NCBI GenBank assembly: GCA_003135555.1
Contig: PLCF01000049.1
Location: 448-27,886 of the forward strand
Source: Vulcanimicrobiota bacterium
GTDB taxonomy: Bacteria; Vulcanimicrobiota; Vulcanimicrobiia; Vulcanimicrobiales; Vulcanimicrobiaceae
DNA length: 27,439 bases
Direction of reading: 5' to 3'
Shown here in pieces: positions 4,305-25,643 of this stretch; position 1 is the stretch's first letter; each line of letters begins with the position of its first letter. The position numbers and the translations under genes were made by a program. The notes beneath the pieces were generated by a model. It saw only the letters and a list, made by a program, of their open reading frames with translations. It was not told the DNA's origin and did no database searches.

Positions 4305-4436
4305 TTCATCGCGCGTGCACGCGCGCTCCATACCATTGCCACGGTATGAGTACGGCGGTTTCCACGCTCGAAGAGCCGATCGCGGGCGCGCTAGGCTTCA
4401 CAGAGTGATCACACGGCATGACTCCGGAGGTTGGCT

Positions 4437-4880
4437 ATGACCGGGATGCTCGATCCGGTGACGATGGACGCGCTGTTGAGATCCGAGACAGTCGCGCATC
4501 TCGCATGCATCCGAGCCGACGGTCGGCCGTACGTCGTGCCCATCACCTATGCCTATGATGGAGAGGCTCTGTACTCGTACAGTGCCGACGGCGACAAGCT
4601 GGATGCGCTGCGTGCCAACCCCTCGGTGTGCGTGGTCGTCGACCGTGTCGAGGACGCTGCCAACTGGGTCAGCGTCCTCGCGTGGGGCACGTTCCGCGAG
4701 TTGGCCGACGGGTCTGCCGCACAGGCTCTACGGCTGATCAGCGAACGCTTGCGTACGGTAGCGCTTGCGGATGCGGCGCCGGGTTCGGCCGAACGGAGTT
4801 ACGTCGGCCGCACCGGACGTGACGGCGTCACGTACCGCATCGCGATCGCCGAACGCACGGGGCGCTTCTCCAAGAGTTGA
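4437..4880 (+). CDS. Pyridoxamine 5'-phosphate oxidase-like (NimA-type) flavin-binding protein
   Basis: GGAGG RBS at 4426-4430, ATG 4437; motifs AHLAC...DGRPYVVPITY, GDKLDALRANPSVCV, WVSVLAWG, RTGR. Confidence 0.85.
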   Translation: MTGMLDPVTMDALLRSETVAHLACIRADGRPYVVPITYAYDGEALYSYSADGDKLDALRANPSVCVVVDRVEDAANWVSVLAWGTFRELADGSAAQALRLISERLRTVALADAAPGSAERSYVGRTGRDGVTYRIAIAERTGRFSKS

Positions 4881-5039: not shown

Positions 5040-5068
5040 TTGCCGCAGGGTTGCATGTGGGCTATAGT
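5040..5068 (+). promoter_or_regulatory. Sigma70-type promoter of the dcw operon
   Basis: TTGCCG (5040-5045), 17-nt spacer, TATAGT (5063-5068), directly upstream of mraZ. Confidence 0.65.
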
Positions 5069-5100
5069 GGTCGACAGTGGATCACAGTGGGGCTCAGTGG
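5057..5100 (+). promoter_or_regulatory. MraZ-binding direct repeats (GTGG boxes, 10-bp period)
   Basis: GTGG at 5057, 5067, 5077, 5087 and 5097, matching the known MraZ operator architecture upstream of mraZ. Confidence 0.85.
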
Positions 5101-5108
5101 AGGTCCTG

Positions 5109-5546
5109 ATGGACCGTCCGCTGTTCACAGGTTCGGTCGAGCATAGCCTAGACGATAAGGGCCGTCTCGTCGTGCCCGCACGCTTCCGCGAGCGGCTGGG
5201 TGCCGGCTTCTTTCTCACCATCGCCGAGCCCGACCCGTGTCTGGCGCTTTATCCGGCCTCCGCCTGGGGTGACGTCTGCGCCCGCATCGAGGCCGCCCCG
5301 GTCAAAGATGCACGCTTCCGCAGCTACGTGCGCCACCTCTTCGCCAATACCGAAGAGCTCAGCACCGACGCCCAAGGCCGGCTGGTCATCCCGGCCGCGT
5401 TGCGCGCCTACGCCGGGATCGACAAGGAAGTGATCTCGATCGGCTCGCTCACCCGCGTCGAGGTCTGGGCCAAGGACCGCTACGCGAAGCACGTCCGCGA
5501 CCGCGGCGAGCTGCCCGACATCGCCTCGGAGCTGGGGCTGTTTTGA
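5109..5546 (+). CDS. mraZ: Division/cell-wall cluster transcriptional repressor MraZ
   Basis: GGAGG then ATG 5109; two DxxGRLxxP motifs (DDKGRLVVP, DAQGRLVIP); first gene of dcw. Confidence 0.96.
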   Translation: MDRPLFTGSVEHSLDDKGRLVVPARFRERLGAGFFLTIAEPDPCLALYPASAWGDVCARIEAAPVKDARFRSYVRHLFANTEELSTDAQGRLVIPAALRAYAGIDKEVISIGSLTRVEVWAKDRYAKHVRDRGELPDIASELGLF

Positions 5547-6422
5547 TTGCCGCCCCACGTTCCGGTCCTGGCGCGACAAACGGTGGACGCACTAGCGATC
5601 CGCTCGGATGGAACCTACATCGACGCAACGTTCGGTGCCGGTGGGCACTCGGCGCTGATCCTTGCGGCCCTGAATGCGCGGGGCCGGCTGGTCGCGTTCG
5701 ATGCGGACCCCTCGGCGGGCGCGCACGCGCTCGCCGACCCGCGCTTCACGCTGCTGCACGCGAACTTCCGCGATTTGGCGTCGAGTCTCGACGCGCTGGA
5801 GATCGCGCAGGTCGATGGGGTTCTTTTCGATTTGGGGGTGAGCTCGATGCAGTTCGATGAGGGCGAGCGCGGCTTCTCGTTCCGCGTCGCCGCGCCGCTG
5901 GACATGCGCATGAACCCCGCTGCCGGCGAGAGCGCCGCGGAGTTTTTGGCGCTCCGCGACGAGCGCGTTATCGCCGACACCATTTACGAGTACGGCGAGG
6001 AGCGCAAGTCGCGCCGCATCGCGCGCGCCATCGTCGCGCTGCGCGAGGCCGGCACGCCGGTGCGCGACACGCTCGATCTCGCCGGGGTCGTCGCGCGCGC
6101 CGTGCGCGCCCCCGCGCACGCCAAGATCCACCCGGCCACGCGCACGTTCCAAGCCCTGCGCATCGCGGTCAACGACGAGCTCGGCGCGCTGCGCGAGGGG
6201 CTCGACGCCGCCCTCGCGCGCACCGCGCCGGGCGGCCGCATCGCCGTCATCAGCTTCCACTCGCTCGAGGATCGCATCGTGAAGCACACCTTCCGGGAGG
6301 ATCCGCGCGTGCGCGTCCTCACTCGCAAGCCGATCGTCGCCGCGGGTGACGAAATCGCTTCGAACCCGCGGGCGCGCAGCGCCAAGCTGCGGGCCGCCGA
6401 ACGCATCGCGGTGGCGGCATGA
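5547..6422 (+). CDS. rsmH: 16S rRNA m4C1402 methyltransferase RsmH (MraW)
   Basis: HVPVL, DATFGAGGHS, DLGVSSMQ, RGFSF, HPATRTFQALRIAVN, ISFHSLEDRIVK, NPRARSAKLR. Confidence 0.97.
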   Translation: MPPHVPVLARQTVDALAIRSDGTYIDATFGAGGHSALILAALNARGRLVAFDADPSAGAHALADPRFTLLHANFRDLASSLDALEIAQVDGVLFDLGVSSMQFDEGERGFSFRVAAPLDMRMNPAAGESAAEFLALRDERVIADTIYEYGEERKSRRIARAIVALREAGTPVRDTLDLAGVVARAVRAPAHAKIHPATRTFQALRIAVNDELGALREGLDAALARTAPGGRIAVISFHSLEDRIVKHTFREDPRVRVLTRKPIVAAGDEIASNPRARSAKLRAAERIAVAA

Positions 6423-6844
6423 TCGCCGCGCAGCGTGTCGAGCCCGAGCTGCGGCGCATCGACCGCGTCCGCCACGCCGCCGACCGGCGCGTGCGCCGCA
6501 CCCGCCGCCGTTTGCACCGGCCGGTCCACGCCGTCGCCACCCTGACGATCCTCTTGCTGCTGCCGCTGCTGGGCTACGTCGCATTGACCTCGCGGATCAC
6601 CTCGCAGAGCTTCGCGCTGGTCCGCGCCGAGCACGATCGCACGGCGCTCGTCGACGAAACGCAACGGCTCGACGACCGCATCGCGCAGCTCCAGTCGCCC
6701 GAGCGCCTCGCCGCGCTCGCCGCGAACCTCAAGCTGCACGACCCGCACGTGTACGCCGTCGTACGCATCCCCGAGCCGAAGGCGCAGCCCCGGCCGACCG
6801 GGCTGGCGTTCTTCGGGACCTTGTTCAGCGGCAGCAGCCGGTAA
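6419..6844 (+). CDS. ftsL: Cell division protein FtsL-like
   Basis: Position between rsmH and the PBP; basic N-terminus, one TM helix, coiled coil ending LQSPERLAALA. Confidence 0.7.
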   Translation: MIAAQRVEPELRRIDRVRHAADRRVRRTRRRLHRPVHAVATLTILLLLPLLGYVALTSRITSQSFALVRAEHDRTALVDETQRLDDRIAQLQSPERLAALAANLKLHDPHVYAVVRIPEPKAQPRPTGLAFFGTLFSGSSR

Positions 6845-6848
6845 TCTG

Positions 6849-8614
6849 ATGGCGGCACGTGCCTTTGCGCGCGTCCCGCCGCTGCGCGCGAAGGTCGCGA
6901 TCGTGTTCCTGACCGTCTTGGCGCTCGCGCTGGCGCTGCGCCTGGGCGAGCTGCAAATCCGCGAAGGCCCCAGCCTGGCGCACAAAGCGCTGCGCCAGCA
7001 CGGTCACACGGTCGAGACCTTCGCCAAGCGCGGTGCGATTCTCGACCGCAACGGCGGCGTGCTCGCGCATTCGCTGGCGTCGGAATCGATCTACGCGGTA
7101 CCGCCCGACGTGCTCGACCCGCACGCCGTCGCGGTGAAGCTCGCGCCGCTGCTGCACAAGCCTGCGCCCAACATCGAAGCGGCGTTGCGCGACAAGATCT
7201 CGTTCCGCTGGTTGGCGCGCAAGGTCCCGCACGACGTCGCCAAGCGCGTCGACGCGCTGGCGATCCCGGGAATCGTCACGAAAGGCGAGGAGACCGGACT
7301 GCGCTTCGTCTCGTCGGGGCGCCTTGCGTCGACGGTGGTCGGCTTCACCGGAACCGACGAGAACGGCTTGGACGGCCTGGAGTACTCGCTCGACAAGCTG
7401 TTGCGCGGCACACCGGGGCGCATGCGCATCGAAGCCGATCAGTTCAACCGCGCGATCCCGTTCGGCGAGACGCAGGTCGTCGAGCGCGCCGTCCCCGGCA
7501 ACACGATCGTCACCACGCTGGACCCGTACCTGCAATTCGAAGCCGAGCGGCTGCTGCGCACCGCGATGAAGAAGTGGAGCGCGCGCAGCGCGACCGCGCT
7601 GGTGATGGATCCGTGGACCGGCGAGCTGCTCGCGGTCGCCAACTTGCCCGACTTCGATCCGACCCACTTCGGTGCGTTCGGCAGCGATACGTGGCGCGAC
7701 CGCGCGATCAGCGACGCCTACGAGCCCGGTTCGACCTTCAAGCTCATCACCGCGGCGGCGGCGCTCGAGAGCGGAAAGTTCCCGGCCGGCGTGCGCTTCC
7801 CGGCGCGCGATGCGATCGAGGTCGGCGGGCGCACGATCCACAACGCCGAGGACGGGTTGATGGCGAGCGGCCGGGGCAGCGAGTCGATCGAAGAGATCGT
7901 CGCGCTCTCACACAACGTCGGCGCCGCCGAGATCGGGCTCGCCACCGGACCGACGGCGATGTACCGCACCATCCGCAAGTTCGGGTTCGGCGATGCGACC
8001 AAGGTCGAGCTTTCGGGCGAGAACCCCGGGATCGTCACCAAGCCCGCCGACTGGAGCGGTTCGTCGCTGGCGACGATCTCGTTCGGCCACGGCATCTCGA
8101 TAACGCCGCTCGCCCTGGCGCGCGCCTACTGCGCGATCGCCAACGGCGGCCTGCTGCTGCGCCCGCGCATCGTCTCGGCGATCGAGGACGCCAACGGCAA
8201 ACTGATCTACCGCTACGGCACGGAGGTCGAGCACCGCGTCATTACCGAGCGCACCGCGGCGACGCTGCGCGGCTACCTGCGCACCGCCGTCCTGCACGGC
8301 ACCGGCAATCCGACGGCGCAAGTCGCCGGCTACACCACCGCCGGAAAGACCGGGACCGCCCAGGTCGTCGAAAACGGGGTCTATCTGGGCGGCGCCTACA
8401 TCGCGTCGTTCGTCGGGATGATCCCGGCCGACCACCCGCGCTATCTGATCCTGGTCAAGGTCGAACGCCCGCACGGCTCGATCTACGGCTCGCAGGTCGC
8501 CGCGCCGGTGTTCGCGCAGCTCGCCCGGGCCGCGATGTTCCACGCCGGCGTGATGCCGGCCGCCGGCCCGGCGCGCTTGGTCAGTTCGGGCCGCGCGCCG
8601 AACGGAACGCGTTG

Positions 8615-8615
<1 letters not shown>
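6849..8615 (+). CDS. ftsI: Class B penicillin-binding protein (FtsI/PBP3-type transpeptidase)
   Basis: RGAILDRNG, GLDGLE, catalytic EPGSTFK (SxxK), SHN (SxN), KTGT; N-terminal TM helix; dcw position. Confidence 0.93.
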
Positions 8616-10095
<1,480 letters not shown>

Positions 10096-10099
<4 letters not shown>

Positions 10100-11487
10100 C
10101 GCTCGACACGCTCGAGGCGATCGACGCGATGCGCGCTCGGGTGGTCGGCGCGGAAGCGCTGCCCGCGGCGCTGCTCGTGCAGACCGACACGCGCTCGCTC
10201 GAACGCGGGGCGACGTTTCTCGCCTTGCGCGGCGAGAACTTCGACGGCCACGCCTACGTCGACGAAGCGTTCGCGCGCGGCGCCGCCTGCGCGATCGTCG
10301 ACGCGCGCGACGAAGTGTCGATCGCCGCGGCCAAAGGCCGTGCGCTGCTGGTCGTCCCCGACACCTTGCGCGCGTACCTCGAACTCGGAGCGCTGGCGCG
10401 TACGCGCGTCCGCGGCACGGTCGTCGCGGTCACCGGCAGCACCGGCAAGACCACGACCAAGCAGTTCCTCTTGGGTCTGTTGCGCGGCGTCGGCGTCCCC
10501 GCCGCCGCGACGCCCGAGAACGAGAACAACGAGGTCGGCGTCGCCAAGTTCCTCTGCGGGCTCGACGACGGTGACGAACGGATCGCGATCGTCGAGATGG
10601 GCGCGCGCAAGTACCGCGACCTCGACGTGCTCGTCGCGGCGGCGCGCCCCGACATCGGCGTGCTCACCAACGCCGGCGAAGCGCACCTCGAGATCATGGG
10701 CTCACGCGGGCGCATCGCCGAGACGAAGTGGGCGGTCCCGGCGGGCTCGCGTCAGGCGGTGCTCAACCTCGACGACGCCGCGTCGCGCGAGCGCGCCGCA
10801 ACGCTGGCGCTGGCGCCGCTGTGGTACGGCATCGACGACGAGCGCCCGCCGCAAGGCGCGCGCGCCGTCGTCATCGAGTCCGACGCGGTCCGCACGATCG
10901 CCGCGGACGGCGCCGTCGAGCGGTCGCGAATCGAGATCGGTTTCCCGGGCGACCACAACCGCCGCAACCTGGCCGCCGCGTTCGCCGCGGCGCTGCTGTG
11001 CAGCACCGGGCGCGCGAGCCTCGCCGACCTCGCCGAGGCGGTGCGCGGCGTGGCGCTGCCGCACGGCCGCTACGAGATCGTCGACCTGCCCAACGACGTG
11101 CGCCTGGTGTTCGACGCCTACAACGCGTCGCTCTCGGGGACGCTCGCCACGTTGGCGACGTTCGGGCGCGAAGAGGCGGAGCGCCGCATCGCGGTGCTGG
11201 GCAGCATGGCGGAGTTGGGCGACGACGCGCCCGCGATGCACGAGAAGATCGGCGAGATCGCCGCGACCCGCGCCGACGTCGTGCTCGCCGGCGGCGAGTT
11301 CGCGCCCGACACCGCGCGCGGCGTCGAGGCCAAGGGCGGTACGGTGGTGCGCTACGCCGCCAACGACGACGCGATCGCCTGGCTGCGCGCGAACGTCCGT
11401 CGCGGCGACACGATCCTGCTCAAAGGTTCGCGCCGCTACAAGATGGAGCAGATCGCCGAAGCGCTCGGCGCGGCGGTGTTCGCATGA
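10096..11487 (+). CDS. murF: UDP-MurNAc-pentapeptide synthetase MurF
   Basis: DTRS, GENFDGH, TGSTGKTTTK, NNEVG, EMGA, DAYNAS, GSMAELG, LLKGSR. Confidence 0.96.
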
Positions 11488-12179
11488 TCCCGGTCGCGAT
11501 TCGCGAGAGCGGGCTCCCCGAAGGCCTCGTCGCGATCCCGGTGCGCACGCGGCTCATCGCCCCCGGCGACGACCTCGCCGCGCTCGTCGGCGCCGCGATC
11601 CGCGGGATCGCGCGCCCCGGCGACGTGGTGGTCATCGCCGAGACCGGCGTCGCCATCGCACAGTCGCGTTTCATCGCGGCCGAGTCGATCCGCCCGTCGC
11701 GCTTGGCGCTGGTGCTGTCGCGTCACGCCGGTGCGCTCGCGACGGTGAGCCAGCCCGAATCGCTGCAGCTGGTGATCGATCAGGTCGGCGCGCGCAAGGT
11801 CGTGTGGGCCGTGATCGCCCACGTGTTCGGTCGCCTGCGCGGGCGGCGCGGCGTGTTCTACGAGATCCTAGGCGAAGCGATCGCCGCGATCGACGGCTAC
11901 ACCGGGACGCTGCCGCCCTACGAGCGCGCGATCGTGCTCGGACCGGCCGATCCGGATCCCGTCGCGACCGTCCTGGCGTTGGCGCTGGGCGTGCATGTCG
12001 CGATCGTCGACGCCAACGACCTGCGCCGCGCTAAGACGCTGGGCGCCTCGCCGCACGTCGATCGCGACGCCGTCGAGCGCGCGCTCGTCGGCAACCCGCA
12101 CGGCAACGGCGACGAGCAGACGCCGATCGTCGTCCTCGCCTGGCGCGGCACCGGCCCGAACCCGCTGGTGACGCCGTGA
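11484..12179 (+). CDS. CofE-like (F420-0:gamma-glutamyl ligase family) protein
   Basis: ATG 11484 overlaps the murF stop. IPVRTRLIAPGDDL, GDVVVIAE..VAIAQ, IDG..GTLPPY, LGP.DPD, AIVDAND, GNPHGNGDEQTPIVV resemble CofE-family motifs (recognised by eye). Confidence 0.75.
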   Translation: MIPVAIRESGLPEGLVAIPVRTRLIAPGDDLAALVGAAIRGIARPGDVVVIAETGVAIAQSRFIAAESIRPSRLALVLSRHAGALATVSQPESLQLVIDQVGARKVVWAVIAHVFGRLRGRRGVFYEILGEAIAAIDGYTGTLPPYERAIVLGPADPDPVATVLALALGVHVAIVDANDLRRAKTLGASPHVDRDAVERALVGNPHGNGDEQTPIVVLAWRGTGPNPLVTP

Positions 12180-13204
12180 GCGACATCGGTATCCACCTCC
12201 CCTGGTGGGCTCCGCTGCTGTCGTTCTTCCCCGGCAACATCGGCAGGTTCGTCGTCCCGCTGCTGCTCTGCACCGTTGCGGCCTTCGCGCTGAGCGCGAT
12301 CCTCGGGCGTCCGCTGATTACCGCGTTGCGCCGGGCGTCGGCACGGCAGATCGCTTACGAAGACGCGCCCCAAACGCATCAAAGCAAGACCGGCACGCCG
12401 ACCATGGGCGGTCTGCTGTTCGGGCTCGCGCCGCTCGTCGCGCTCGTCGTCGCCCCCTTCCGCGAAACCGCGGCCCTGGCGGTGTTGATCTACGGCTGCA
12501 TGGCGATCGGAGCGATCGACGACGTCGCCAAGATTCGCGGACAGCAGAACCGCGGACTGCGCGCGCGGACGAAGTTCGCGCTCACGGCGATCGTCGCCGT
12601 CGTCTTTCTGCTCGTCGCCGGACCGCAATACACGTCGTTCGTCGGCATCGGCGCGGTACCGCCCTGGCTCTGGTACGGGCTCTCGATCGTCGTCGTCGTC
12701 TCGACGACGCACGCGGCGAACCTGACCGACGGTCTCGATGGCCTCCTGTCGGGTGTCGCGATCCCGCCGTTGCTCGTGCTCGTCATCGCCGGGTATCTTG
12801 CCGAAGTGCGCGTGGGGGACGACGGAATGGCCGCTCAGGCCGTGGCGGCGGCGATGCTCGGCGCGGTGCTCGGTTTCTTGCTCTACAACCGCCATCCGGC
12901 GCGGTTGTTCATGGGCGACACCGGCTCGCTCGCCGTGGGGGGCGCGCTGGCCGGCGGCGCGATCCTCACGCACACGCAGCTGTTCCTTCCAATCATTGGC
13001 GGCGTGTTGGCGGCAGAAACCCTCAGCGTCATCATCCAGGTCGTGTCGTACAAGTCGACGGGCCGCCGCGTCTTTCGGATGAGCCCGCTCCACCACCACT
13101 TCGAGCTCGCCGGGTGGCCGGAGACGAAGGTGACCTCCGGATTTTGGCTCGCCTCGCTCGTCCTCTCCGTGTTGGGCCTCGCCCTGATCTCGCTAACTGC
13201 ATGA
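12176..13204 (+). CDS. mraY: Phospho-MurNAc-pentapeptide transferase MraY
   Basis: KTGTPTMGG, IDD, NLTDGLDGL, FMGDTGSL, RMSPLHHHFE; multiple TM helices. Confidence 0.97.
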   Translation: MSDIGIHLPWWAPLLSFFPGNIGRFVVPLLLCTVAAFALSAILGRPLITALRRASARQIAYEDAPQTHQSKTGTPTMGGLLFGLAPLVALVVAPFRETAALAVLIYGCMAIGAIDDVAKIRGQQNRGLRARTKFALTAIVAVVFLLVAGPQYTSFVGIGAVPPWLWYGLSIVVVVSTTHAANLTDGLDGLLSGVAIPPLLVLVIAGYLAEVRVGDDGMAAQAVAAAMLGAVLGFLLYNRHPARLFMGDTGSLAVGGALAGGAILTHTQLFLPIIGGVLAAETLSVIIQVVSYKSTGRRVFRMSPLHHHFELAGWPETKVTSGFWLASLVLSVLGLALISLTA

Positions 13205-14616
13205 ATCCCCAACCGAGCGGCGAGCTGGGCCGCGACGAAAACGTTCTGATCATCGGCCTGGGGCGCAGCGGACGCGCCAGCGTCGAGGTGCTGCGCACGC
13301 GCGTCGCGCGCGTGTACGCGACCGACGAAGCGTCGCCCGACGAGCTCGCCGACGCGTTCGCCGACCTCGCGGCCGCCGGCGTCGAGTACGTTGAGCCCGC
13401 GCGCCTGGGCGACTACCTCGAGCGCATCACCGTCGCCGTGCTCTCGCCGGGGATCCCGCTCACCTCGCCGCTGGTGCGGCGCGTGCAGGCGGCGCGCATC
13501 CCGGTGTTCAGCGAGGTCGAGGTCGCCTACCGGTTGTGCCGCGCCCCGATCGTCGCGGTCACCGGTACCAAAGGCAAGTCGACGACGACCGCGTTGCTCG
13601 GCGCGCTGTTCGAAGCCGCCGGCAAGACGGTGCGCGTCGGCGGCAACATCGGCAACGCGCTAATCCGCGAGACCGCCGCCGCGTCGCCCGACGACTGGGT
13701 GATCGCCGAAGTCTCGTCGTTCCAGCTCGAGTCGATCCGCTCGTTCAAGCCGCGCATCAGCCTGATCCTCAACATCACACCCGACCATCTCGACCGCTAT
13801 CCGTCGATGGAAGAGTACGCCGAAGCGAAGTTCCGCATCTTCGCCAACCAGGGCGCGGGCGACACGTTTATCGGCAACCTCGACGACCCGATCGTCGCCT
13901 CGGCGAATCAAGGCCAGGACGACGGCAGCCGCATCAAGGCGCGCGAGCTGTGGTTCGCGTCGGAGCCGCACCGCAACACGACGCTCTACCTGCGCAACGG
14001 CCGGCAGATCGTCTACGCGCCGCCAACGGGCGATCCGCGTCCGGTCGACATCCTGCGCACCAGCGAGATCGCGCTGCTCGGCGCGCACAACATCGAGAAC
14101 GTGATGGGCGCCATCCTGGTCGCGCTGGCCGCCGAGTTGCCGCTCGACGCGATCCGCGCAGGCGTGCGCAACTTTCGCGCGCTGGGGCATCGGCTCGAGC
14201 CGGTCGCCGAGATCGACGGCGTGCAGTACGTCGACGACTCCAAGGCCACCAACCCCGGCGCGGTGATCGCCGCGATGCGCTCGTTCGACCGCCCGATCGT
14301 GCTCATCGCCGGCGGCAAAGCCAAGGGCACCGATTTCGCCGCGATGGGCAAGGTCGTTTCGTCGCGCGCCAAGGCCGTGGTGCTCATCGGCGAAGCCGCC
14401 GACGACATCGCCGCGGTCGTGCGGCGGGCGAAAGTCGAGCACGCGACGTCGATGGACGACGCGGTCCTGCGCGCGAGCAATCTCGCCGAGCCCGGCGACA
14501 TCGTGCTGCTCTCGCCCGGCTGCGCGTCGTTCGACATGTTCCGCTCGGCCGAACATCGCGGCGAGCTCTTCGCCGGCGCCGTGCGCGGGCTCGGGGCGGT
14601 CGCCGGTGCACGCTAG
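13201..14616 (+). CDS. murD: UDP-MurNAc-L-Ala:D-Glu ligase MurD
   Basis: ATG 13201; GLGRSG, SPGIP, TGTKGKSTTT, GGNIG, EVSSFQL, HRLE, DDSKATN, LLSPGCASFDMF. Confidence 0.97.
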   Translation: MNPQPSGELGRDENVLIIGLGRSGRASVEVLRTRVARVYATDEASPDELADAFADLAAAGVEYVEPARLGDYLERITVAVLSPGIPLTSPLVRRVQAARIPVFSEVEVAYRLCRAPIVAVTGTKGKSTTTALLGALFEAAGKTVRVGGNIGNALIRETAAASPDDWVIAEVSSFQLESIRSFKPRISLILNITPDHLDRYPSMEEYAEAKFRIFANQGAGDTFIGNLDDPIVASANQGQDDGSRIKARELWFASEPHRNTTLYLRNGRQIVYAPPTGDPRPVDILRTSEIALLGAHNIENVMGAILVALAAELPLDAIRAGVRNFRALGHRLEPVAEIDGVQYVDDSKATNPGAVIAAMRSFDRPIVLIAGGKAKGTDFAAMGKVVSSRAKAVVLIGEAADDIAAVVRRAKVEHATSMDDAVLRASNLAEPGDIVLLSPGCASFDMFRSAEHRGELFAGAVRGLGAVAGAR

Positions 14617-15766
14617 AGGCGTCCGCCCCACGCAGCCCGGCGCGAGCTACGCGCGCACCGCGCGGCCCAAGCCCGTCCTCAAGCCGCCCGACGCGCTGCT
14701 GCTCGGTGCGGTCGCGTTTCTGGTCGGGCTCGGCTTGGTGATGGTCTACAGCGCGTCGAGCGCGACCGCGTACGCGGCCTACCACGACACCGCGCACTAC
14801 CTCAAGCGCCAACTCGTCTATCTCGTGCTCGGACTGTTCCTCGCCTACGTGGCGTATCGCGTCGACTACGGCAAGCTGCGCGGGCTCGCGCCGGGCTTGG
14901 TCTTGTTCACGCTGCTGCTGCTGGGGCTCACGTTGATCCCGCACGTCGGCTTCTTGAGCGGCGGCGCGCGCCGCTGGCTGGGCTTCGGCGCTTTCTCGTT
15001 CCAGCCGTCGGAGTTGGGCAAGCTCGCGCTGGTGATCTTCTTGGCGGCGAAGTTGTCGCAGCTCAACGACCGCGTGCAATCGCTCTCCAAAGGCGTCGTG
15101 CCGGTGCTGCTGATCACGCTGCTGCTGGCCGGACCCGTGCTGGTCGAGCCCGACATGGGAACTGCCTCGATCTACATCTTCACCGCGCTAGCCGTGCTGT
15201 TCACCGCCGGCGCGCGCATCGAGCACCTCATCATGTGTACGCTGGCGATGCTGCCGGCCGTGGTGATCGCCGTCGGCTCGTCGCCGTACAAGCTCAAGCG
15301 CGTCCTCGCCTTCATCGACCCCTGGAAGGACGCGCAAAACACCGGCTTCCACATCGTGCAGTCGTTGCTCGCGCTGGGAAGCGGTGGGATCTTCGGCCTG
15401 GGCCTGGGCGCGTCGCGGCAGAAATACTTCTATCTGCCGATGCCGCACACCGACTTCATCTTCGCGGTGATCGGCGAAGAGTTGGGGATGCTGGGCTGCC
15501 TGGTCGTCATCGCGCTGTTCTTGCTGTTCGCGATCCGCGCCGCGAGCCTCGCGCTGCGCGCGCCCGACCGCTTCGGCATGCTGCTCGCGCTCGGCTGCAC
15601 GTACCTCATCGTGATCCAAGCCTTCGTCAACATCGGCGTAGTAACGTCGTCCTGGCCCGTAACCGGCGTCCCCCTCCCGTTCATCTCCTTCGGCGGCACG
15701 TCGTTAGTCGTCTCCCTCATCGCCGTAGGCCTAATCGTCAACATCGGCCGCTACCGCACGTCATGA
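14606..15766 (+). CDS. ftsW: SEDS peptidoglycan polymerase FtsW
   Basis: MVYSAS, GARRWL, FQPSELGK, EPDMG, HTDFIFAVIGEELG, TGVPLPFISFGG. Confidence 0.95.
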   Translation: MHARGVRPTQPGASYARTARPKPVLKPPDALLLGAVAFLVGLGLVMVYSASSATAYAAYHDTAHYLKRQLVYLVLGLFLAYVAYRVDYGKLRGLAPGLVLFTLLLLGLTLIPHVGFLSGGARRWLGFGAFSFQPSELGKLALVIFLAAKLSQLNDRVQSLSKGVVPVLLITLLLAGPVLVEPDMGTASIYIFTALAVLFTAGARIEHLIMCTLAMLPAVVIAVGSSPYKLKRVLAFIDPWKDAQNTGFHIVQSLLALGSGGIFGLGLGASRQKYFYLPMPHTDFIFAVIGEELGMLGCLVVIALFLLFAIRAASLALRAPDRFGMLLALGCTYLIVIQAFVNIGVVTSSWPVTGVPLPFISFGGTSLVVSLIAVGLIVNIGRYRTS

Positions 15767-15770
15767 CTTA

Positions 15771-15852
15771 TGTCACCCCGTGCCCCAAAGGATTCATTGT
15801 CACCCTGACGGAGTCACGTGCGCGTGAGCCCCGTCGAAGGGTGAGCCACCAT
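15771..15852 (+). repeat. REP-like repeat copy 3 (long variant with nested hairpin)
   Basis: TGTCACCCTGA-CGGAGTCACGTGCGCGTGA-GCCCCGTCGAAGGGTGAGCCACCAT at 15798-15852; partial TGTCACCCC at 15771. Confidence 0.9.
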
Positions 15853-16788
15853 CCCTGTCGCACGGCGCTCGCGGCCGCGCTGCTGCTCGCAACACTCGGC
15901 GCAACATCGCCGCCGCCGCCGTCGCTGCTGATCGCAACGCCGACGTTCCTGATGTACGCCGAAGGCGACCACCGCCAACCCGCCGTCGCCGGCGGGCGGG
16001 CGGCGGGCTACCACGTGCTGAGCACCCTCGCCGACGGTAGCGCACTCGTCGGTTACGACGACGATCTGTTCACCGCCGTCGAGTCGGTGACGCCGGCGCT
16101 CGAGGCGCGCCGGGTCAAGACGTTCCCGCGCGGCACCACGTTCTTCCCCGGTAACGACGGCTTCTTGGCCTACGACGGCGCGTCCCAGCTGCTGCGCCGC
16201 TACGACGCGCGCGGCACGCTCATCGGCTCGCCCGTGCTACCGTCGGGGATCACCTCGGCGCTCGGCGTCGGCGACTCCATCGTCGTACTGGGAGCTGGAC
16301 GCTTGCAAGTCTACGACCGCGGCGGCCGAATGCGCCGCGTCGCCGCGATAGAAGGCAACGCGCTCGCCGCCCTGCCGGACTCCCGCTTCGCCGTCAACGA
16401 CGTGCGCGACGGCGAAGTCCGCGCCTACACTACCGAGCTCGAACAGACCGCAACGCTACGCTACGTCGGCCTCCCCGCGCGCACGATCGCATCAGCGCCC
16501 GACGGCGCGCTAGCCGTGCTCGCCGGAACACCCTCCTGCGTCACGTCCGACGCCGAAGTCGACGTCTTCACCGACCTCCACGCGCAGCCCGTCGCGCGTA
16601 TCCACACCGGCATCACCGCCCCGCTCGCGCTCGCCGTCGGCCCCGGCTACGTCTACATCGCCAACGGATCGTGCCAGCGCGATCAGGACGGCTCGATCTC
16701 GATCTTCACCCGCGAAGGCACCTCCGCCGGCACCATGCAAAACATCGGCACCCCCACCAGCATTCTCCCGTTTCGTTTGTCACCCTGA
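15841..16788 (+). CDS. Secreted hypothetical protein, probable beta-propeller
   Basis: Signal-like RTALAAALLLATLGA, beta-rich repeats (ASAPDGALAV, LAVGPGYVYIAN). Start is either GTG 15841 (inside repeat 3) or ATG 15763 (overlapping the ftsW stop). The stop lies inside repeat 4. Confidence 0.65.
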   Translation: MSHHPCRTALAAALLLATLGATSPPPPSLLIATPTFLMYAEGDHRQPAVAGGRAAGYHVLSTLADGSALVGYDDDLFTAVESVTPALEARRVKTFPRGTTFFPGNDGFLAYDGASQLLRRYDARGTLIGSPVLPSGITSALGVGDSIVVLGAGRLQVYDRGGRMRRVAAIEGNALAALPDSRFAVNDVRDGEVRAYTTELEQTATLRYVGLPARTIASAPDGALAVLAGTPSCVTSDAEVDVFTDLHAQPVARIHTGITAPLALAVGPGYVYIANGSCQRDQDGSISIFTREGTSAGTMQNIGTPTSILPFRLSP

Positions 16789-16824
16789 CGGAGTCGCGTG
16801 CGCGTGAGCCCCGTCGAAGGGTGA
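16778..16824 (+). repeat. REP-like repeat copy 4 (long variant)
   Basis: TGTCACCCTGACGGAGTCGCGTGCGCGTGAGCCCCGTCGAAGGGTGA. Confidence 0.9.
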
Positions 16825-16827
16825 AAG

Positions 16828-16865
16828 GAGAAGGCCCGCTCTTCCAAGCGGTCCTTTTCGTTTTG
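16828..16865 (+). terminator. Candidate intrinsic terminator
   Basis: GAGAAGGCCCGCT-cttcca-AGCGGTCCTTTTC hairpin (one mismatch, one G-U pair) with T-rich 3' side, after the last co-directional gene of the first dcw block. Confidence 0.45.
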
Positions 16866-16876
16866 ACCGTCCTCAT

Positions 16877-16931
16877 TGTCACCCTGACGGAGTCACGTGC
16901 GCGTGAGCCCCGTCGAAGGGTGAGCCACGAT
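16877..16931 (+). repeat. REP-like repeat copy 5 (long variant)
   Basis: TGTCACCCTGACGGAGTCACGTGCGCGTGAGCCCCGTCGAAGGGTGAGCCACGAT. Confidence 0.9.
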
Positions 16932-17118
16932 CATCCCGTCACCGCCGCGGACCTGCGGGCGTGCTTTCGCGGCGACGTCTACGGTGAGGCAGAGACGATG
17001 ACGGACGCGTGGTTCGCCGACCACGTAGCGCGCAACGACATCGCTCGAACGGTCTACTGAGCGAACTCTGCTGGGACCAGATCGCACGCCAACAACGAAT
17101 GCGCATCGCGCTACTCTC

Positions 17119-17215
17119 TTAGAGCAGCTGGCGCAACTCGTCGGAACTCATACCGATGTCGTCAAGGATTTGGGCAAGCATTCGGGGTCGACGGCTGCCC
17201 GAGGGAGACGCCGCG
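17119..17215 (-). pseudogene. HicA toxin remnant (internal deletion)
   Basis: Directly after hicB: RRLPR (HicA-like N-terminus), then out of frame PRMLAQILDDIGMSSDELRQLL* (HicA-like C-terminal helices). The catalytic GSH core is absent. Confidence 0.55.
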
Positions 17216-17217
17216 CG

Positions 17218-17469
17218 TTAGGCTGCAGGCGGATTGACGATGACGCGCTCCACACGTACCGGAACGTCCGCGTCCGGTGCGGGGAGTTCTTCACCATGTT
17301 CGATCGCGACCTCGATCTCGAGCTCGATGACTTCGCGCGCATTCGCGAGCGCATCATCGACCGTCTCACCCTGGGTGTGCGCGTGCGGAAATGCAGGAAT
17401 CCGTACGACAAATCCGCCGTCGTCCGGATCGGCTTCGAGAATGACGCGATAAGCGCGCGGATCGGCCAC
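17218..17469 (-). CDS. hicB: HicB-family antitoxin
   Basis: YRVILEADPDDGGFVVRIPAFPHAHTQGETVDDALANAREVIEL...GEELP; GTG start at 17469 is inferred. Confidence 0.88.
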   Translation of the reverse strand: MADPRAYRVILEADPDDGGFVVRIPAFPHAHTQGETVDDALANAREVIELEIEVAIEHGEELPAPDADVPVRVERVIVNPPAA

Positions 17470-17524
17470 GAGGATAATTTCGCGCCGAGGAAAGTCGATC
17501 CCCTCGACTTTCGGCGCTCCCACG

Positions 17525-17575
17525 GTCACCCTGACGTGATTGTCACCCTGAGCCCGTCGAAGGGTGAGCCACGAT
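17525..17575 (+). repeat. REP-like repeat copy 6 (half plus full)
   Basis: GTCACCCTGA-cgtgat-TGTCACCCTGAGCCCGTCGAAGGGTGAGCCACGAT between hicB and fabZ. Confidence 0.9.
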
Positions 17576-17577
17576 CG

Positions 17578-18051
17578 CTACAGCGAGAGAATCGACGTCT
17601 CGTAACCCGACAGCGACGGATCGCTAACGATCGACAACCGCAACTCGCCGCTGACGACGAGCTTGCCGTCGACCTTCCCTTCGACCGCCATCAAGGCGAC
17701 GTTCATCTTGATCTTGTCGACGCGCGCCTCCATGTCGAACCGATCCCCCGGAACCACCGGCCGCCGGAAGCGGATCTTGTCCATCCCGGTGAGGTACGAC
17801 ACCTTGCGCGCCATCTCGCCCGGTTCGACGATCACCGCGCCGGCGAGCTGCGCCAACGCCTCGACCATGAGCACGCCCGGCAGCAGCGGATTGCCTGGAA
17901 AGTGACCCGTGAACATCGGCTCGTTTGCGGTGACGTTCTTGTAGCCGCGCGCGAACACCATCAACTCGCGTTCGGTGATCCGGTCGATCAGCAGCATCGG
18001 GTAGCGGTGCGGCAAGATCTGCATGATCTCGCGCACGTCCATCTCGGCCAC
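17578..18051 (-). CDS. fabZ: 3-hydroxyacyl-ACP dehydratase FabZ
   Basis: LPHRYPMLLIDR, KNVTANEPMFTGHFP, PGVLMVEALAQ, FRRPVVPGD; GTG 18051 overlaps the upstream TAG (alternative ATG 18042). Confidence 0.93.
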   Translation of the reverse strand: MAEMDVREIMQILPHRYPMLLIDRITERELMVFARGYKNVTANEPMFTGHFPGNPLLPGVLMVEALAQLAGAVIVEPGEMARKVSYLTGMDKIRFRRPVVPGDRFDMEARVDKIKMNVALMAVEGKVDGKLVVSGELRLSIVSDPSLSGYETSILSL

Positions 18052-18302
18052 TACGCGCCACCCGCATAGTCTTGGATCGGCGTAACCCGCCCGCCGAAAA
18101 TCTCGCTCAGGTCGACACCGTATGCCGCGCAAACGCTCGCGAGCTCGGTTTCGCTCAGCCCAACCGTTCCCGCCTCGGCCTCGGCAAGCCGTTCCGCATC
18201 GATCCCGGTAGCCTCGGCCGCGCCCTCGACGGTCAGCCCGCGCCGCGTGCGAAAGCGCACGAGCCGCTCGGCAACCTCCGCGAGCAGATTCTCATCGGGC
18301 AC
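18051..18302 (-). CDS. XRE-family HTH protein
   Basis: RLVRFRTRRGLTVEGAAEATGI...AEAG...AYGVDLSEIF matches the HTH_XRE pattern; start uncertain. Confidence 0.75.
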   Translation of the reverse strand: MPDENLLAEVAERLVRFRTRRGLTVEGAAEATGIDAERLAEAEAGTVGLSETELASVCAAYGVDLSEIFGGRVTPIQDYAGGA

Positions 18303-18399
18303 CCCCAGAGGTTGAACGCCCAGCCGTCGTCCTCCCGGCGCGAGTCGAACCGCATCCAAGGAAGCGATCGCGCATCACAATCAAAAGCGCCATCCCCAT

Positions 18400-18435
18400 T
18401 GTCACCCTGAGCCCCGTCGAAGGGTGAGCCACGAT
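18400..18435 (+). repeat. REP-like repeat copy 7
   Basis: TGTCACCCTGAGCCCCGTCGAAGGGTGAGCCACGAT. Confidence 0.9.
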
Positions 18436-18569
18436 CCCGGTCGGCCGGTCGGACGGCGCCCTGTAAAGACCTGGTCGGGTTGTAGGGCATAGCACATAGG
18501 GGCTAGAACGGGCTGCCAGCCGTCGAGGAACTGGGCGTGGGCGCGGGTGTCGGCGGCACGGAGGTAAGG

Positions 18570-19823
18570 GTGCGGGTTACCGGGACGCGGTTGGGAGCGT
18601 TTACGCTCCTCGGTCTTGTGCTATTAGCCCCGGGGTGTGGCGGCGGCCATGGGGCCACGAACGCGATCCCCGACGGGAGCATGGCGCCCGTCAAATCGGT
18701 CTCGCCCGCGTCGATCCCCGCCCCACCGATGGCGCGGACCGCGATTTTGCCATCCTCGGCGATGACCTCGGTCCGGACTCCCCAGAGCGCGATCGCGCCG
18801 CTAGGGTGGACACAACTTCCCGGCGGAGGCATCTTCGTCGCGGCGAGCCCCGACGGCTCGATCTGGGTCCTCTCGAACCAAGGCCCCGGCCCGGACCAAT
18901 CGATCTGGCACTACGCCAACGGAAACTGGTCGAACATCTCCGGCGGTGCGACCCGGCTCGCCGTCGCGCCGGACAACTCGCTCTGGGCCGTCACTGCCGC
19001 GGGCGGGATCTATCACTATACCGGTTCATGGACGCAGATCGCCGGCGGCGCCAGCGACATCTCGGTCGGCCCCGACGGCTCGGTCTACGTCATCTCGAAT
19101 CAAGGCGGCGGCCCGTTCGGCCGCGGCGCTTGGCGCTACACGAACGGTGCGTGGACGGCGCTGCCGGGCGGCGGCGTGCGTGTCGCGGCCTCGTGGGATG
19201 TTGGAACGTACCTGGGCAACATCACGCCGGGAACGCTGTGGGTCCTCAACACGCCCGGCGATCTGTGGTACTGGAACGCGGCCTTCGGCTTCCACAACCT
19301 CGGCGGCGGCGGCGTCGAGATGGCCCCGACCAGCAACGGCGGGATCTTCGTGCTCGGATTTCCGCAAGGCCCGAACGGCTATCCGCTCTGGTACAACGAC
19401 TTGAGCACCGGCACGTGGACGCCGCTGAGCGGCGGCGGGGTCAGCATCGCGACCGATAGCGCGCACGTCTACGCGATCGGTAAGGCGGGCGGCATCTATT
19501 CCGCCCCGATCACCGCGCCTACACTGTCGGCGAACCCGTCCACCCTCGCGTTTCCGCTCAACCAAACGTACGCTGCACAAACCGTGGCGATCTCGGGCGG
19601 CACGGCGCCCTACACGGTGAGCGTCGTCGATGCGACGATCGCGCAAGCCTCCATGAGCGGATCGACGCTGACCGTGGCTCCGGTGTTCAACGCGGGGCTC
19701 GGGTACTACAACGCGGGTTCTACGACCGCAACCGTCCGCGATGCGGCGAACAACCAGATCGGTGTTCAAGTCGGCGTAACGAGCGCGGTTATTATCATTG
19801 AGTCCCGGAGGCGGAATCGATGA
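18570..19823 (+). CDS. Lipoprotein with tectonin-like beta-propeller repeats and C-terminal Ig-like segment
   Basis: GGAGGT RBS, GTG 18570, lipobox LAPGC; repeated W..(L/I).GG...(V/I)...PDGS.(W/Y)V blades. Confidence 0.75.
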   Translation: MRVTGTRLGAFTLLGLVLLAPGCGGGHGATNAIPDGSMAPVKSVSPASIPAPPMARTAILPSSAMTSVRTPQSAIAPLGWTQLPGGGIFVAASPDGSIWVLSNQGPGPDQSIWHYANGNWSNISGGATRLAVAPDNSLWAVTAAGGIYHYTGSWTQIAGGASDISVGPDGSVYVISNQGGGPFGRGAWRYTNGAWTALPGGGVRVAASWDVGTYLGNITPGTLWVLNTPGDLWYWNAAFGFHNLGGGGVEMAPTSNGGIFVLGFPQGPNGYPLWYNDLSTGTWTPLSGGGVSIATDSAHVYAIGKAGGIYSAPITAPTLSANPSTLAFPLNQTYAAQTVAISGGTAPYTVSVVDATIAQASMSGSTLTVAPVFNAGLGYYNAGSTTATVRDAANNQIGVQVGVTSAVIIIESRRRNR

Positions 19824-19900
19824 ACGTGCTTTCGTCTGACCGCGCTCGCGGTCGTCGTAACGACGGTGCAAGTAATCATCGAGCCTTGGGAGGCACGTCA

Positions 19901-23914: not shown

Positions 23915-23927
23915 CCACCCTAAGCGC

Positions 23928-24416
23928 CTAAGCGGCCTCCTCGCCTGAACGCAGCCCTTCGACGGCGAGCACCACCGCCGCGCCGTAAATTCCATGCGGA
24001 ATCGCGTCGGCCAGCCAGTCGCCGGGACTCCACTTCGCGGGATCGGTAGCACCGGTCTTGGTCGCCGGCACGTCGCTGAGCGCCATCGCGGCGGCGCCGA
24101 CGACGAGCGCCGCAAGCGGCACCGAGATGCGCCGCGGCAGCAACGGCCGGATCATCGCGTACAGCATCCCGACGCCCAGCCCGTTGCCGTATCCGAGCAG
24201 CGCCCCCAGCGCGCTGCGCCGGTGCTGCGACGTCTCGTCGTCGCGCGTGAGTCCCGACAGCCCGGCCGACGAAGCGACGTTCTTCACCAGCTTGCCGGGC
24301 ATCTCGCTTTCGGCGCGCCCGCGCACCGCCATGTCGGCGTAGGTGGCGACGTTGAGGGCGGCCGTGCCGACGGCGCCGGCGGCCGTCCCGGTGGCAAGCG
24401 AGCGGAGCAGTGTCAT
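23928..24416 (-). CDS. Hypothetical membrane protein
   Basis: MTLLRSLATGTAAGAVGTAALNVATYADMAVRGR...TDPAKWSPGDWLADAIPHGIYG; several hydrophobic Gly/Ala helices; ATG 24416. Confidence 0.8.
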   Translation of the reverse strand: MTLLRSLATGTAAGAVGTAALNVATYADMAVRGRAESEMPGKLVKNVASSAGLSGLTRDDETSQHRRSALGALLGYGNGLGVGMLYAMIRPLLPRRISVPLAALVVGAAAMALSDVPATKTGATDPAKWSPGDWLADAIPHGIYGAAVVLAVEGLRSGEEAA

Positions 24417-24482
24417 GCTGGCTTGTACCCCGGGAAGCGCAGCGCCGGGAGCATGGGATCGCTCGCCCGCCGTGAAACCTTC

Positions 24483-25639
24483 GTGTCCGTGGAACTGCGC
24501 GTCGCGTTCACCGGAGGCGGCACCGGCGGACACGTCTATCCGGCGCTCGCGATCGACGAAGCGCTGCGCGCGCGCTTCGGCGCCGACAGCTACACGGCGC
24601 ACTTCTACGGCAACCAAGACGGGCTCGAAGCCACGCTGGTCAAGACGATCCCGCTCAGCTTCGTCCCCAGCGCGCCGCTGCGCCGGTCGTGGTCGCTCGA
24701 AACGCTGCGCACCATGTTCGCCAACCTCGCCGGGATCGTCGTCGCGCTGCGCGCCCTGGCAACATTCAAGCCCGACTTCGTCGTCGCGACCGGCGGCTAC
24801 GTATGCTTCGCCGTCGTCGTCGCCGCGCGCATCCTGCGGTTCGTGCGCGCCCTGCACTGCCCGATCGCGCTCTTGGAGATCAACGTCACGCCCGGGCTGA
24901 CGAACCGCATCGTCCTGCCGCTCGTCGACGAGGTGTGGACGACCTACGCCGCGTCGCAGGAATCGTTCGGGCACAAGGCCGTGCTCACCGGCGCGCCGGT
25001 GCGCGCATCGCTGCTGCAGGTCAAGGACGGCCCTAGCGCGCGCGAGCGCCTCGAGCTCGACCCCGAGCGCACGACGATCGTGGTGATCGGCGGCAGCCAG
25101 GGGGCGCGCTCGGTTAACGAGGCGGTCGCGGCGCTGGTCACCCGTCGCACCCTCGGCGACTGGCAAGTGCTGCACGTCAGTGGCGAACGTGACTTCGCCT
25201 ACATGCAAGCCGAAGAGCGCGAGCTCGCGCCGGGCAACCGCGTGCGGCTCGTGCCCTACCTCGACGACCCGGCCGACGCCTACGCCGCCGCCGACGCGGT
25301 GGTCGCGCGCGCCGGCGCGTCGACGCTGGCCGAGCTCGCCGTGACCGGAACGCCGGCCGTGCTCATCCCGTATCCGCATGCCGCCGACGGGCACCAGGCC
25401 GTCAACGCCGCGCTCTTCGCCGAGTCCGGCGCCGCGCTGGTGCTCAGCGATGCCGAGGTCGACGGCGACCGCCTGTGGTGGACGCTGCGCGAGGCGCTCG
25501 AGCCCGACCGCAACGCCGCGATGCGACGTGCCGCGCGGTCGCTTGCGCCGCGCAACGCCGCGGCGGCGATCGTGGCCCGGATCGAGCGCGCGCTGGCGCC
25601 GCGGGTCGGCGACGCTCCCGACGCGAACGTGGATCACCC

Positions 25640-25643
<4 letters not shown>
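24483..25643 (+). CDS. murG: Lipid II GlcNAc transferase MurG
   Basis: TGGGTGGHVYPALA, TGGYV, GGSQGA, RAGASTLAE, LIPYP, HQAVNA; start GTG 24483 or 24489. Confidence 0.96.

Follow-up and report, generated by a model that had tools for sequence, protein, structure and literature searches.

A CofE-fold protein encoded between murF and mraY in the Eremiobacteria is a candidate ligase of peptidoglycan precursors

Outside the core pathway of peptidoglycan synthesis, MurT/GatD amidates the alpha-carboxyl of D-iso-Glu on lipid II in an ATP-dependent reaction. In Selenomonas ruminantium, Kamio and co-workers reportedly described a membrane-bound, ATP-requiring enzyme that transfers a diamine to the peptidoglycan lipid intermediate. 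Here, we analyzed a stretch of 27,439 nucleotides from a Vulcanimicrobiota bacterium (contig PLCF01000049.1; the whole stretch is hereafter the window), in which a 231-aa protein of the CofE fold, given the working name X (P0001), is encoded between murF and mraY of the division and cell wall (dcw) cluster. The genome of the window, which is 84% complete, belongs to the class Eremiobacteria (three families) of the phylum Eremiobacterota/Vulcanimicrobiota; the names given to near homologues (Candidatus Elarobacter, Vulcanimicrobiaceae) agree with this phylum. The comparative evidence suggests that X may be a nucleotide-dependent ligase adding a polyamine to a peptidoglycan precursor, a proposal that we regard as evenly balanced; that X has some role connected with peptidoglycan is, in our judgment, quite probable.

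In the Negativicutes, cadaverine or putrescine is amide-linked to the D-Glu of the stem peptide (PMC10628300, Silale 2023; preprint 10.1101/2021.05.31.446380, Witwinowski), and taxa with polyaminated walls are listed in PMC10628300 and PMC12826042 (the 2025 Fusobacterium paper). The OmpM outer-membrane tether of diderm Firmicutes needs these D-Glu-linked polyamines to bind the wall, the E. coli wall carries no bound polyamine (both PMC10628300), and the preprint 10.1101/2021.05.31.446380 asks why Negativicutes use a cadaverinated wall. In passages of these three sources, wall polyamination is described without an enzyme. No gene was named for it in the literature searched, which included few subscription journals, and a published assignment is possible. 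By structure, the closest described system is CofE, which turns a carboxylate into an acyl phosphate with GTP and two metal ions, after which the amino group of glutamate attacks (PMC10861534, PMC8498797); the origin of CofE in the F420 pathway is called unclear in an F420 review (PMC8498797). A second function of the same protein group is known from Chlamydia, where CT611 (COG1478) replaces FolC and complements an E. coli folC mutant (PMC1971073, PMC4161248).

X is a genuine conserved gene rather than a chance open reading frame (ORF). It overlaps both murF and mraY by 4 nt (Table 1), as the original prediction, made from the letters of the DNA, had stated, and the dcw-like codon style noted there is borne out by the GC content at third codon positions (0.92 in X, 0.94 in murF, 0.91 in murE). 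The cluster runs mraZ, mraW, PBP transpeptidase, murE, murF, X, mraY, murD, ftsW. Nearly all of the best 120 homologues are 231 aa long, with a query coverage of 99-100%, which supports the start codon of X. Within the class, 49 loci were examined: 29 from the survey of the phylum (28 of the same genus and one of another), 15 from species genomes with an X at least 64% identical to that of the window, and five from genomes of the most distant family. The immediate upstream neighbor of X is murF in 49/49 loci, and mraY is downstream in 47/49, the remaining two reaching the end of the locus first. The dcw location is hence not unique to the genome of the window. MurF-X (P0124) and X-MraY (P0174, P0213) gene calls were also found in fused form, although one-base errors at the 4-nt overlaps may account for them. 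Among the 15 species-genome records, three have titles of other phyla; records titled Armatimonadota, Dormiibacterota, and Acidiferrales (L107, L112, L113) hold a whole dcw cluster including murF-X-mraY, with dcw proteins 46-73% identical to those of the window, and their titles may be those of misassigned bins.

The AlphaFold2 (AF2) model of X, built on 63 family members, reached a pLDDT of 92.6 and a pTM of 0.89, and in this model X has the CofE fold. Against the PDB, Foldseek matches with E<=0.001 were restricted to five chains of A. fulgidus CofE (2phn, 7uld, 2g9i), which align over the full length (E 5e-11 to 1e-9, TM 0.56-0.62, 249-262 aligned columns); the next-best match has an E of 0.75. 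Profile comparison points to homology with CofE and with FbiB's N-terminal domain (PF01996, TIGR01916; 2PHN, 2G9I, 7ULD), with an hhalign probability of 97% (E 7.7e-11) against true CofE. X reaches 47.4 bits on PF01996 (cut-off 25), with residues 20-100 on profile positions 2-80 of 218, and no other family matches; the Mur ligase domains of its neighbors MurE, MurF, and MurD are absent from it. The active sites were compared by profile alignment only. In this alignment, X and CofE have in common the motifs PGDD, PGD, and DPD together with Arg62 and Asp176; the latter (V-D-A-N-D in X) aligns with the strand Asp of the CofE motif (S/T)-D-(S/T), in the form S-D-S, and is at least 90% conserved in the 63 family members. 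The residues conserved across the X family are rich in acids and amides (D47, E53, Q60, D137, D176, N178, D179, N204).

Judged by its sequence, X is not CofE. It scores 28.0 and 31.1 bits on the CofE equivalogs TIGR01916 and NF009809, whose cut-offs are 180.65 and 274, whereas PF01996 gives the true CofE proteins of the phylum 184-231 bits, with positions 4-218 covered. On a hidden Markov model (HMM) of the X family, core X proteins score 250-330 bits and true CofE 13-25 bits. In a tree of 66 rows, from which P0128 (a partial protein) and P0201 were dropped, X and CofE are separated by a long branch with 100/100 support, so that X does not cluster with true CofE. The names in the databases tell otherwise: many records call relatives of X coenzyme F420-0:L-glutamate ligase, and a protein atlas returned only clusters named 'F420 ligase', from Bacillota, Actinomycetota, and Chloroflexota.

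The phyletic pattern agrees with this separation. As previously predicted, Pfam scans found no F420 biosynthesis gene in the window. In the 84% complete genome, CofC was not found, the sole PF01933 protein is YvcK, hence no CofD, and the CofH/G-like matches are MqnC and MqnE, with no FO synthase. A profile against the cof genes, set as a check beforehand, gave CofD in 0/331 genomes of the class (families 0/296, 0/5, and 0/30) and X in 316/331 (284/296, 5/5, and 27/30). In the whole phylum, X is present in 384/401 genomes and in 246 of the 247 of high quality, and CofD is present in 38/401, all within families f6, f18, f19, f20, and f21; up to 11 of the genomes counted here for the phylum carry a flag as unpublished. 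Five CofD-holding genomes each have two PF01996 genes, a full-length CofE and an X-type gene of 22-42 bits. In all four genomes with CofD on the same contig, CofE and CofD are no more than about 1.5 kb apart. In these five families CofD and full-length CofE stand close together (L141-L145), and, by gene content, their members are probably F420 producers, unlike the class of the window. If X were a true CofE, glutamylating F420-0 that the cell makes or salvages, the PF01996 match above the gathering score and the database names would fit. Besides the low equivalog scores and the missing cof genes, the coexistence of X with a separate CofE and the presence of X in fermenters of the gut, Veillonella and Megasphaera among them, speak against this identity, which we ruled out, leaving it a negligible probability.

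The Chlamydia enzyme (FolC2) is a precedent for a CofE fold recruited to another carboxylate acceptor without F420, and the second proven function of COG1478 lends some support to X being a FolC2-type enzyme that glutamylates folate or another cofactor. The two are likened by description only; FolC2 lies in the folate operon of genomes without FolC, whereas X is found in dcw or in polyamine and amidase contexts. Canonical FolC (TIGR01499) is above its cut-off in 31/31 class genomes, including that of the window, on which ground we rejected X as its replacement, and no folate gene stands beside X in any locus scanned. We therefore consider a FolC2-type role very improbable.

Relatives of X at about 40% identity occur across the Terrabacteria. 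A scan of 1.84 billion representatives yielded 677 relatives (E<=0.001), the best 150 of which were listed. A pattern scan of species genomes yielded 285, of which the best 80 were kept; the titles of their records assign them to Acidimicrobiia, Armatimonadota, Synergistia, Desulfotomaculaceae/Pelotomaculum, Tepidanaerobacteraceae, Thermoanaerobacterales, Limnochordales, Xenobia, and Vulcanimicrobiota, and 65 of them lie outside a dcw context. Within about 6 kb of X, tblastn (E<=1e-8) detected no MurE, MurF, MraY, MurD, or FtsW at these 65 loci or at five from the phylum's other classes, so the dcw insertion is a trait of one class and not of the whole X family. PF01996 had no match in 11 of 14 control genomes, among them E. 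coli, B. subtilis, Lactococcus, Corynebacterium, Thermus, Deinococcus, Synechococcus, Thermotoga, Caulobacter, and Bacteroides; the three with matches are archaea. To our knowledge, the walls of the control organisms other than E. coli also have no bound polyamine.

The partners of X outside the class point to an amine. A basic-amino-acid decarboxylase lies within 6 kb of X at 42 of the 65 non-dcw loci; by Pfam, 29 belong to OKR_DC_1, seven are pyruvoyl arginine decarboxylases, and six are ornithine/arginine (Orn/Arg) decarboxylases of the alanine racemase fold. These three unrelated folds occur in at least five arrangements and lineages, comprising Amidase_3-X-OKR_DC_1 (Pelotomaculum-type loci), OKR_DC_1-Amidase_3-X (L116 and L095), OKR_DC_1 followed by a gap and Amidase_3-X (L121), X-Amidase_3-PvlArgDC (Tepidanaerobacter-type loci), and X with OKR_DC_1 or a divergent Orn/Arg decarboxylase (12/12 Acidimicrobiia-type loci). 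Since loci of one lineage are not independent, the weight rests on the number of arrangements and enzyme families, and decarboxylases of three unrelated families beside X are hard to explain without an amine substrate. The original prediction had proposed that X ligates an amine or an amino acid onto a peptidoglycan precursor; comparative evidence supports such a ligase, and the decarboxylase linkage favors the amine and not the amino acid.

Cell wall genes also accompany X in several lineages. Amidase_3 is adjacent or fused to X at 38/65 non-dcw species loci, and the order NAGPA-Ddl-X-DUF188 is found at 5/65. Together with the murF-X order of the class, the presence of Ddl, MurI, or Amidase_3 beside X elsewhere answers positively the question of synteny with mur genes. 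In the five Ddl loci (L059, L064, L067, L071, L073; titled Synergistia, Vulcanimicrobiota, and Bacillota), NAGPA, a phosphodiester glycosidase, and Ddl precede a fused form of X described below, which is followed by DUF188 (YaiI/YqxD). The Amidase_3 proteins linked to X form a distinct subfamily, in every case adjacent or fused to X, without signal peptide or transmembrane (TM) segment, in which an N-terminal 'PRITN' beta domain precedes the catalytic part and DPGHGG and H-x-N are kept (L066:5060-5989, L068:5024-5986, L063:4951-5850(-), L095:5037-6002); the pairing of a cytoplasmic MurNAc-L-Ala amidase with a ligase is unusual. The fusion survey, in which 28 proteins were scanned, found X fused to or paired with this signal-less Amidase_3 bearing its own N-terminal domain in other lineages, as well as fusions known from single representatives (AsnB-X, X-M20 peptidase, X-GNAT, X-adenylate kinase, TPR-X, and X with a polysaccharide deacetylase domain). 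A distant subfamily (P0201, P0238, P0242, P0256, P0244) reaches 130-210 bits on the HMM of X; its members are fused C-terminally to glutamine amidotransferase/asparagine synthase domains of the AsnB type, and it may be another carboxylate-modifying system.

X is also present where polyaminated walls are known. Exact-sequence look-ups and further searches found members in Sporomusa, Methylomusa, Pelosinus, Thermosinus, Propionispora, and Lucifera, and also in Megasphaera, Mitsuokella, Anaerovibrio, Selenomonas sputigena, Veillonella magna, V. montpellierensis, and Dialister pneumosintes; outside the Negativicutes, Natranaerofaba and Thermodesulfobium have X too. The comparison with polyaminated-wall taxa, another check proposed beforehand, thus places X in Veillonella, Selenomonas, Megasphaera, Dialister, Mitsuokella, Anaerovibrio, Sporomusa, and Pelosinus. 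In the Negativicutes X has a second partner. Of 80 Negativicutes-type metagenome loci kept, 30 were examined, and in 29 of these a 177-197-aa ORF with a TM helix immediately precedes X; 15 of these ORFs align in a profile that matches, with 99.5% probability, the N-terminal part of a fused protein of about 400 aa. This fused protein, which occurs in classes of the phylum other than that of the window and in several further lineages, consists of an N-terminal TM helix, a beta-sandwich of about 140 aa, and the X domain, and its model reached a pLDDT of 88 and a pTM of 0.86. We call this partner Y. It has no Pfam match, combines a TM helix with an Ig-like beta-sandwich, is always fused to or directly upstream of X, and carries the motifs N-x-G-x-Q, T-I-M-D, L-P-Y-E-Q, and P-R-x-D-D-Y-F-E-A (examples: L156:5432-5980 and 14 more in alignment A4; the N-terminal 185 aa of P0133). 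A fold search with Y matched generic Ig-like sandwiches only (adaptin ear, Kir cytoplasmic domain, TTHA1873; E about 3e-4) and gave no functional lead. Directly upstream of the Y-X pair, the glutamate racemase MurI is encoded in five of ten Negativicutes-type loci scanned, and rph-rdgB or unrelated modules follow downstream. In one such locus, an S-adenosylmethionine decarboxylase, a polyamine synthesis enzyme, lies three genes downstream of X (L185:7807-8595).

From these neighborhoods and the chemistry of CofE, we propose that X is a soluble amide ligase recruited to peptidoglycan synthesis and translationally coupled between MurF and MraY. An NTP and a divalent metal would convert a free carboxylate of the finished precursor into an acyl phosphate, as in CofE, and a polyamine would then attack to give the amide. 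The amine, cadaverine, putrescine, or agmatine, would be supplied by a Lys, Orn, or Arg decarboxylase. Because X stands between MurF, which makes UDP-MurNAc-pentapeptide, and MraY, which consumes it, the position suggests UDP-MurNAc-pentapeptide or lipid I as the acceptor, and the TM anchor of Y suggests a membrane-proximal substrate in the relatives. The alpha-carboxyl of D-iso-Glu would be the likeliest site, as it is the site known in Negativicutes, MurI neighbors Y-X there, and MurT (MurT_C) was detected in 0/31 class genomes. A possible amine source in the class is an OKR_DC_1 decarboxylase of roughly 500 aa, present in 59/61 genomes; the copy in the genome of the window, compared along its full length, shares 40% identity with the one adjacent to X in Pelotomaculum.

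Compared with the described systems, the proposed reaction is that of the Selenomonas diamine transfer, and X is present in Selenomonas and Veillonella, paired there with the membrane-anchored Y. Unlike that membrane-bound activity, X of the window has no TM segment, and Y was not found in its genome with the A4 profile or with the HMMs of A4 and of the A5 N-terminal part on six-frame ORFs of at least 50 aa (nothing below E 3). MurT/GatD would act on the same D-iso-Glu carboxylate and has an unrelated fold (Mur ligase plus glutaminase), and the Mur ligases MurC-F share with X the operon and the proposed acyl-phosphate amide ligation, although the fold of X is another one. Compared with CofE, X is a separate deep clade with no F420 pathway around it, and its partners are MurF/MraY, Y, Amidase_3, and decarboxylases.

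Several observations weigh against a polyamine ligase in the class. In place of the CofE motif T-(H/Q)-K-x-x-S-K-A-E-G-R, X has A-E-(S/T)-x-V-A-I-x-Q-G-R; in the hhalign alignment, A-E-T-G-V-A-I-A-Q-S-R stands opposite the motif, and only the Arg is retained. Two Lys and one Glu, invariant in the five aligned CofE proteins and which we take to bind GTP, are thus replaced, and nucleotide binding may differ or be lost. With the fold and other motifs kept, we read this as the chemistry of CofE run with a different, cationic nucleophile and another acceptor, though altered or lost nucleotide binding would fit as well. Position 138 is Gly in the dcw clade and Asp in 42/42 other core members; moreover, the clade has a long stem (0.75) and falls outside the decarboxylase-linked clades with weak placement support (83/79), so the transfer of function to it from relatives of about 40% identity is uncertain. 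No decarboxylase, amidase, or Y gene stands beside X in the dcw-clade loci (49 class loci for the decarboxylase), and the decarboxylase of the genome of the window lies away from X, beside TonB-like genes. About 20 of the 42 decarboxylase-linked loci are from Pelotomaculum or Desulfotomaculaceae, and the linkage as such fits a soluble polyamine conjugate equally well. PF04230, the family of CsaB-type pyruvyl transferases, is found in 59/61 class genomes, although it is broad and matches the E. coli and B. subtilis controls too. Binding of SLH domains to pyruvylated polymers is usual in most diderm Terrabacteria, and with CsaB-type enzymes present the SLH protein of the genome could bind such a polymer and need not depend on a polyaminated wall. 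Finally, the peptidoglycan composition of any Eremiobacterota was not found in the literature searched.

The SLH protein just mentioned, the only one of the genome, has 939 aa with one N-terminal SLH repeat at residues 74-117 (L130:2208-5027(-)). About 800 further residues have no Pfam match, the gene adjoins a DUF3084 gene, and the protein resembles an outer-membrane tether of the OmpM/SlpA type. The idea that Eremiobacteria need a polyaminated wall for want of a pyruvyl-polymer route was ruled out by PF04230 in 59/61 genomes. The only cultured member is a diderm with a thin wall, and its wall chemistry is not reported (Vulcanimicrobium paper).

These points bear on two other explanations. 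X could act on peptidoglycan or its precursors without adding a polyamine, by attaching an amino acid or else ammonia to a carboxylate of the stem peptide or of MurNAc, by recycling muropeptides together with the cytoplasmic Amidase_3, or as a non-catalytic, precursor-binding coupler of MurF and MraY. The constant dcw position with no decarboxylase beside X in the class would suit such a role, and so would the fusions to MurF, MraY, and Amidase_3, the AsnB-type amidotransferases of the distant subfamily, the absence of signal peptides in the amidase partners, the lost CofE lysines, and the D138G change. It leaves the decarboxylases of three unrelated families at 42/65 non-dcw loci to be explained; in addition, the dcw clade and the remaining family agree in their residue at 35 of the 40 columns that are conserved in each, an argument for shared chemistry. 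We consider it rather unlikely. Alternatively, X could conjugate a polyamine elsewhere, to a soluble D/L-glutamyl compound, a secondary wall polymer, or a lipid, its wall neighbors reflecting shared regulation of the envelope. Here the decarboxylase linkage is accounted for, the contexts of fused Y-X are varied, and the Negativicutes-type pair between murI and rph-rdgB sits in a housekeeping setting. The independent links to MurF, MraY, Ddl, MurI, and Amidase_3 and the polysaccharide deacetylase fusion, spread across phyla, together with the tight translational coupling of X within murF-mraY, make it improbable in our view.

If the polyamine ligation of a precursor is adopted, the X family would be the gene for an activity known from Negativicutes but genetically orphan, the polyamination of D-Glu in the stem peptide. 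More broadly, and tentatively, the family would be the missing peptidoglycan:polyamine ligase, an old Terrabacterial system, and polyaminated walls would be widespread. Its three forms would be split Y and X (Negativicutes), fused Y-X (Synergistia-like, Armatimonadota-like, and deep Eremiobacterota), and amidase-linked X (Desulfotomaculia, Thermoanaerobacterales, Limnochordales); the family would further be present in Acidimicrobiia, and in the class Eremiobacteria the step would be built into the core dcw operon.

The linkage of X to decarboxylases and amidases, the partner Y, the distribution in Negativicutes, and the polyamine hypothesis are new, and the best reading of X is a new functional variant among the CofE-fold ligases. 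A candidate gene in the genetically tractable Veillonella makes the orphan step testable. If the proposal is true, the textbook peptidoglycan pathway would gain an extra step, and thousands of 'coenzyme F420-0:L-glutamate ligase' annotations would be corrected in organisms without F420; on the broader, tentative reading, the CofE of the F420 pathway would be the sister of a cell wall enzyme. Polyaminated walls would then be known from several phyla, with a new envelope target in anaerobes. Even if the polyamine part fails, the near-universal, coupled, enzyme-like X within murF-mraY would be an undescribed step on wall precursors.

Table 1. Features of the window in and around the dcw cluster.
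Feature	Coordinates	Strand	Basis or remark
PNPOx-like split-barrel protein (Pyridox_ox_2)	4431-4880		Pfam; just upstream of dcw cluster
Upstream dcw genes, whole block	5040..10099	+	Pfam scans
mraZ	5040-5546	+	Pfam
mraW	5547-6422	+	Pfam
ORF without assignment, upstream dcw part	6346-6849	+	Pfam scans
PBP transpeptidase	6849-8615	+	Pfam
murE	about 8600-10099	+	Pfam; start not fixed
murF (UDP-MurNAc-tripeptide:D-Ala-D-Ala ligase)	10096..11487	+	Pfam: Mur_ligase, Mur_ligase_M, Mur_ligase_C domains
ATGA overlap, murF stop / X start	11484..11487	+	Read from sequence
X	11484..12179	+	231 aa; PF01996 match, AF2 model, Foldseek
GTGA overlap, X stop (TGA) / mraY GTG start	12176..12179	+	Read from sequence
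mraY (phospho-MurNAc-pentapeptide translocase), GTG start	12176..13204	+	Pfam: Glycos_transf_4 and MraY_sig1
Downstream dcw genes, whole block	13300..15766	+	Pfam scan
murD	about 13300-14616	+	Pfam; start not fixed
ftsW	14606-15766	+	Pfam
Two ORFs without Pfam family	15763-16788 and 17170-18069		Pfam scan; between ftsW and GT28 gene
Tectonin-domain protein	18537-19823		Pfam; downstream of ftsW
1364-aa protein with fn3, Ig-like, and ChitinaseA_N domains	19820-23914		Pfam
GT28 (MurG-like) protein, 549 aa	23994-25643		Pfam; GT28 domains from residue 170

Around the cluster, two minor observations were made. murG is not in its usual place behind ftsW (window 15763-25643). Additionally, although the genome shows no F420 biosynthesis genes, it encodes the Pyridox_ox_2 protein upstream of mraZ, whose superfamily presumably also includes F420-dependent enzymes.

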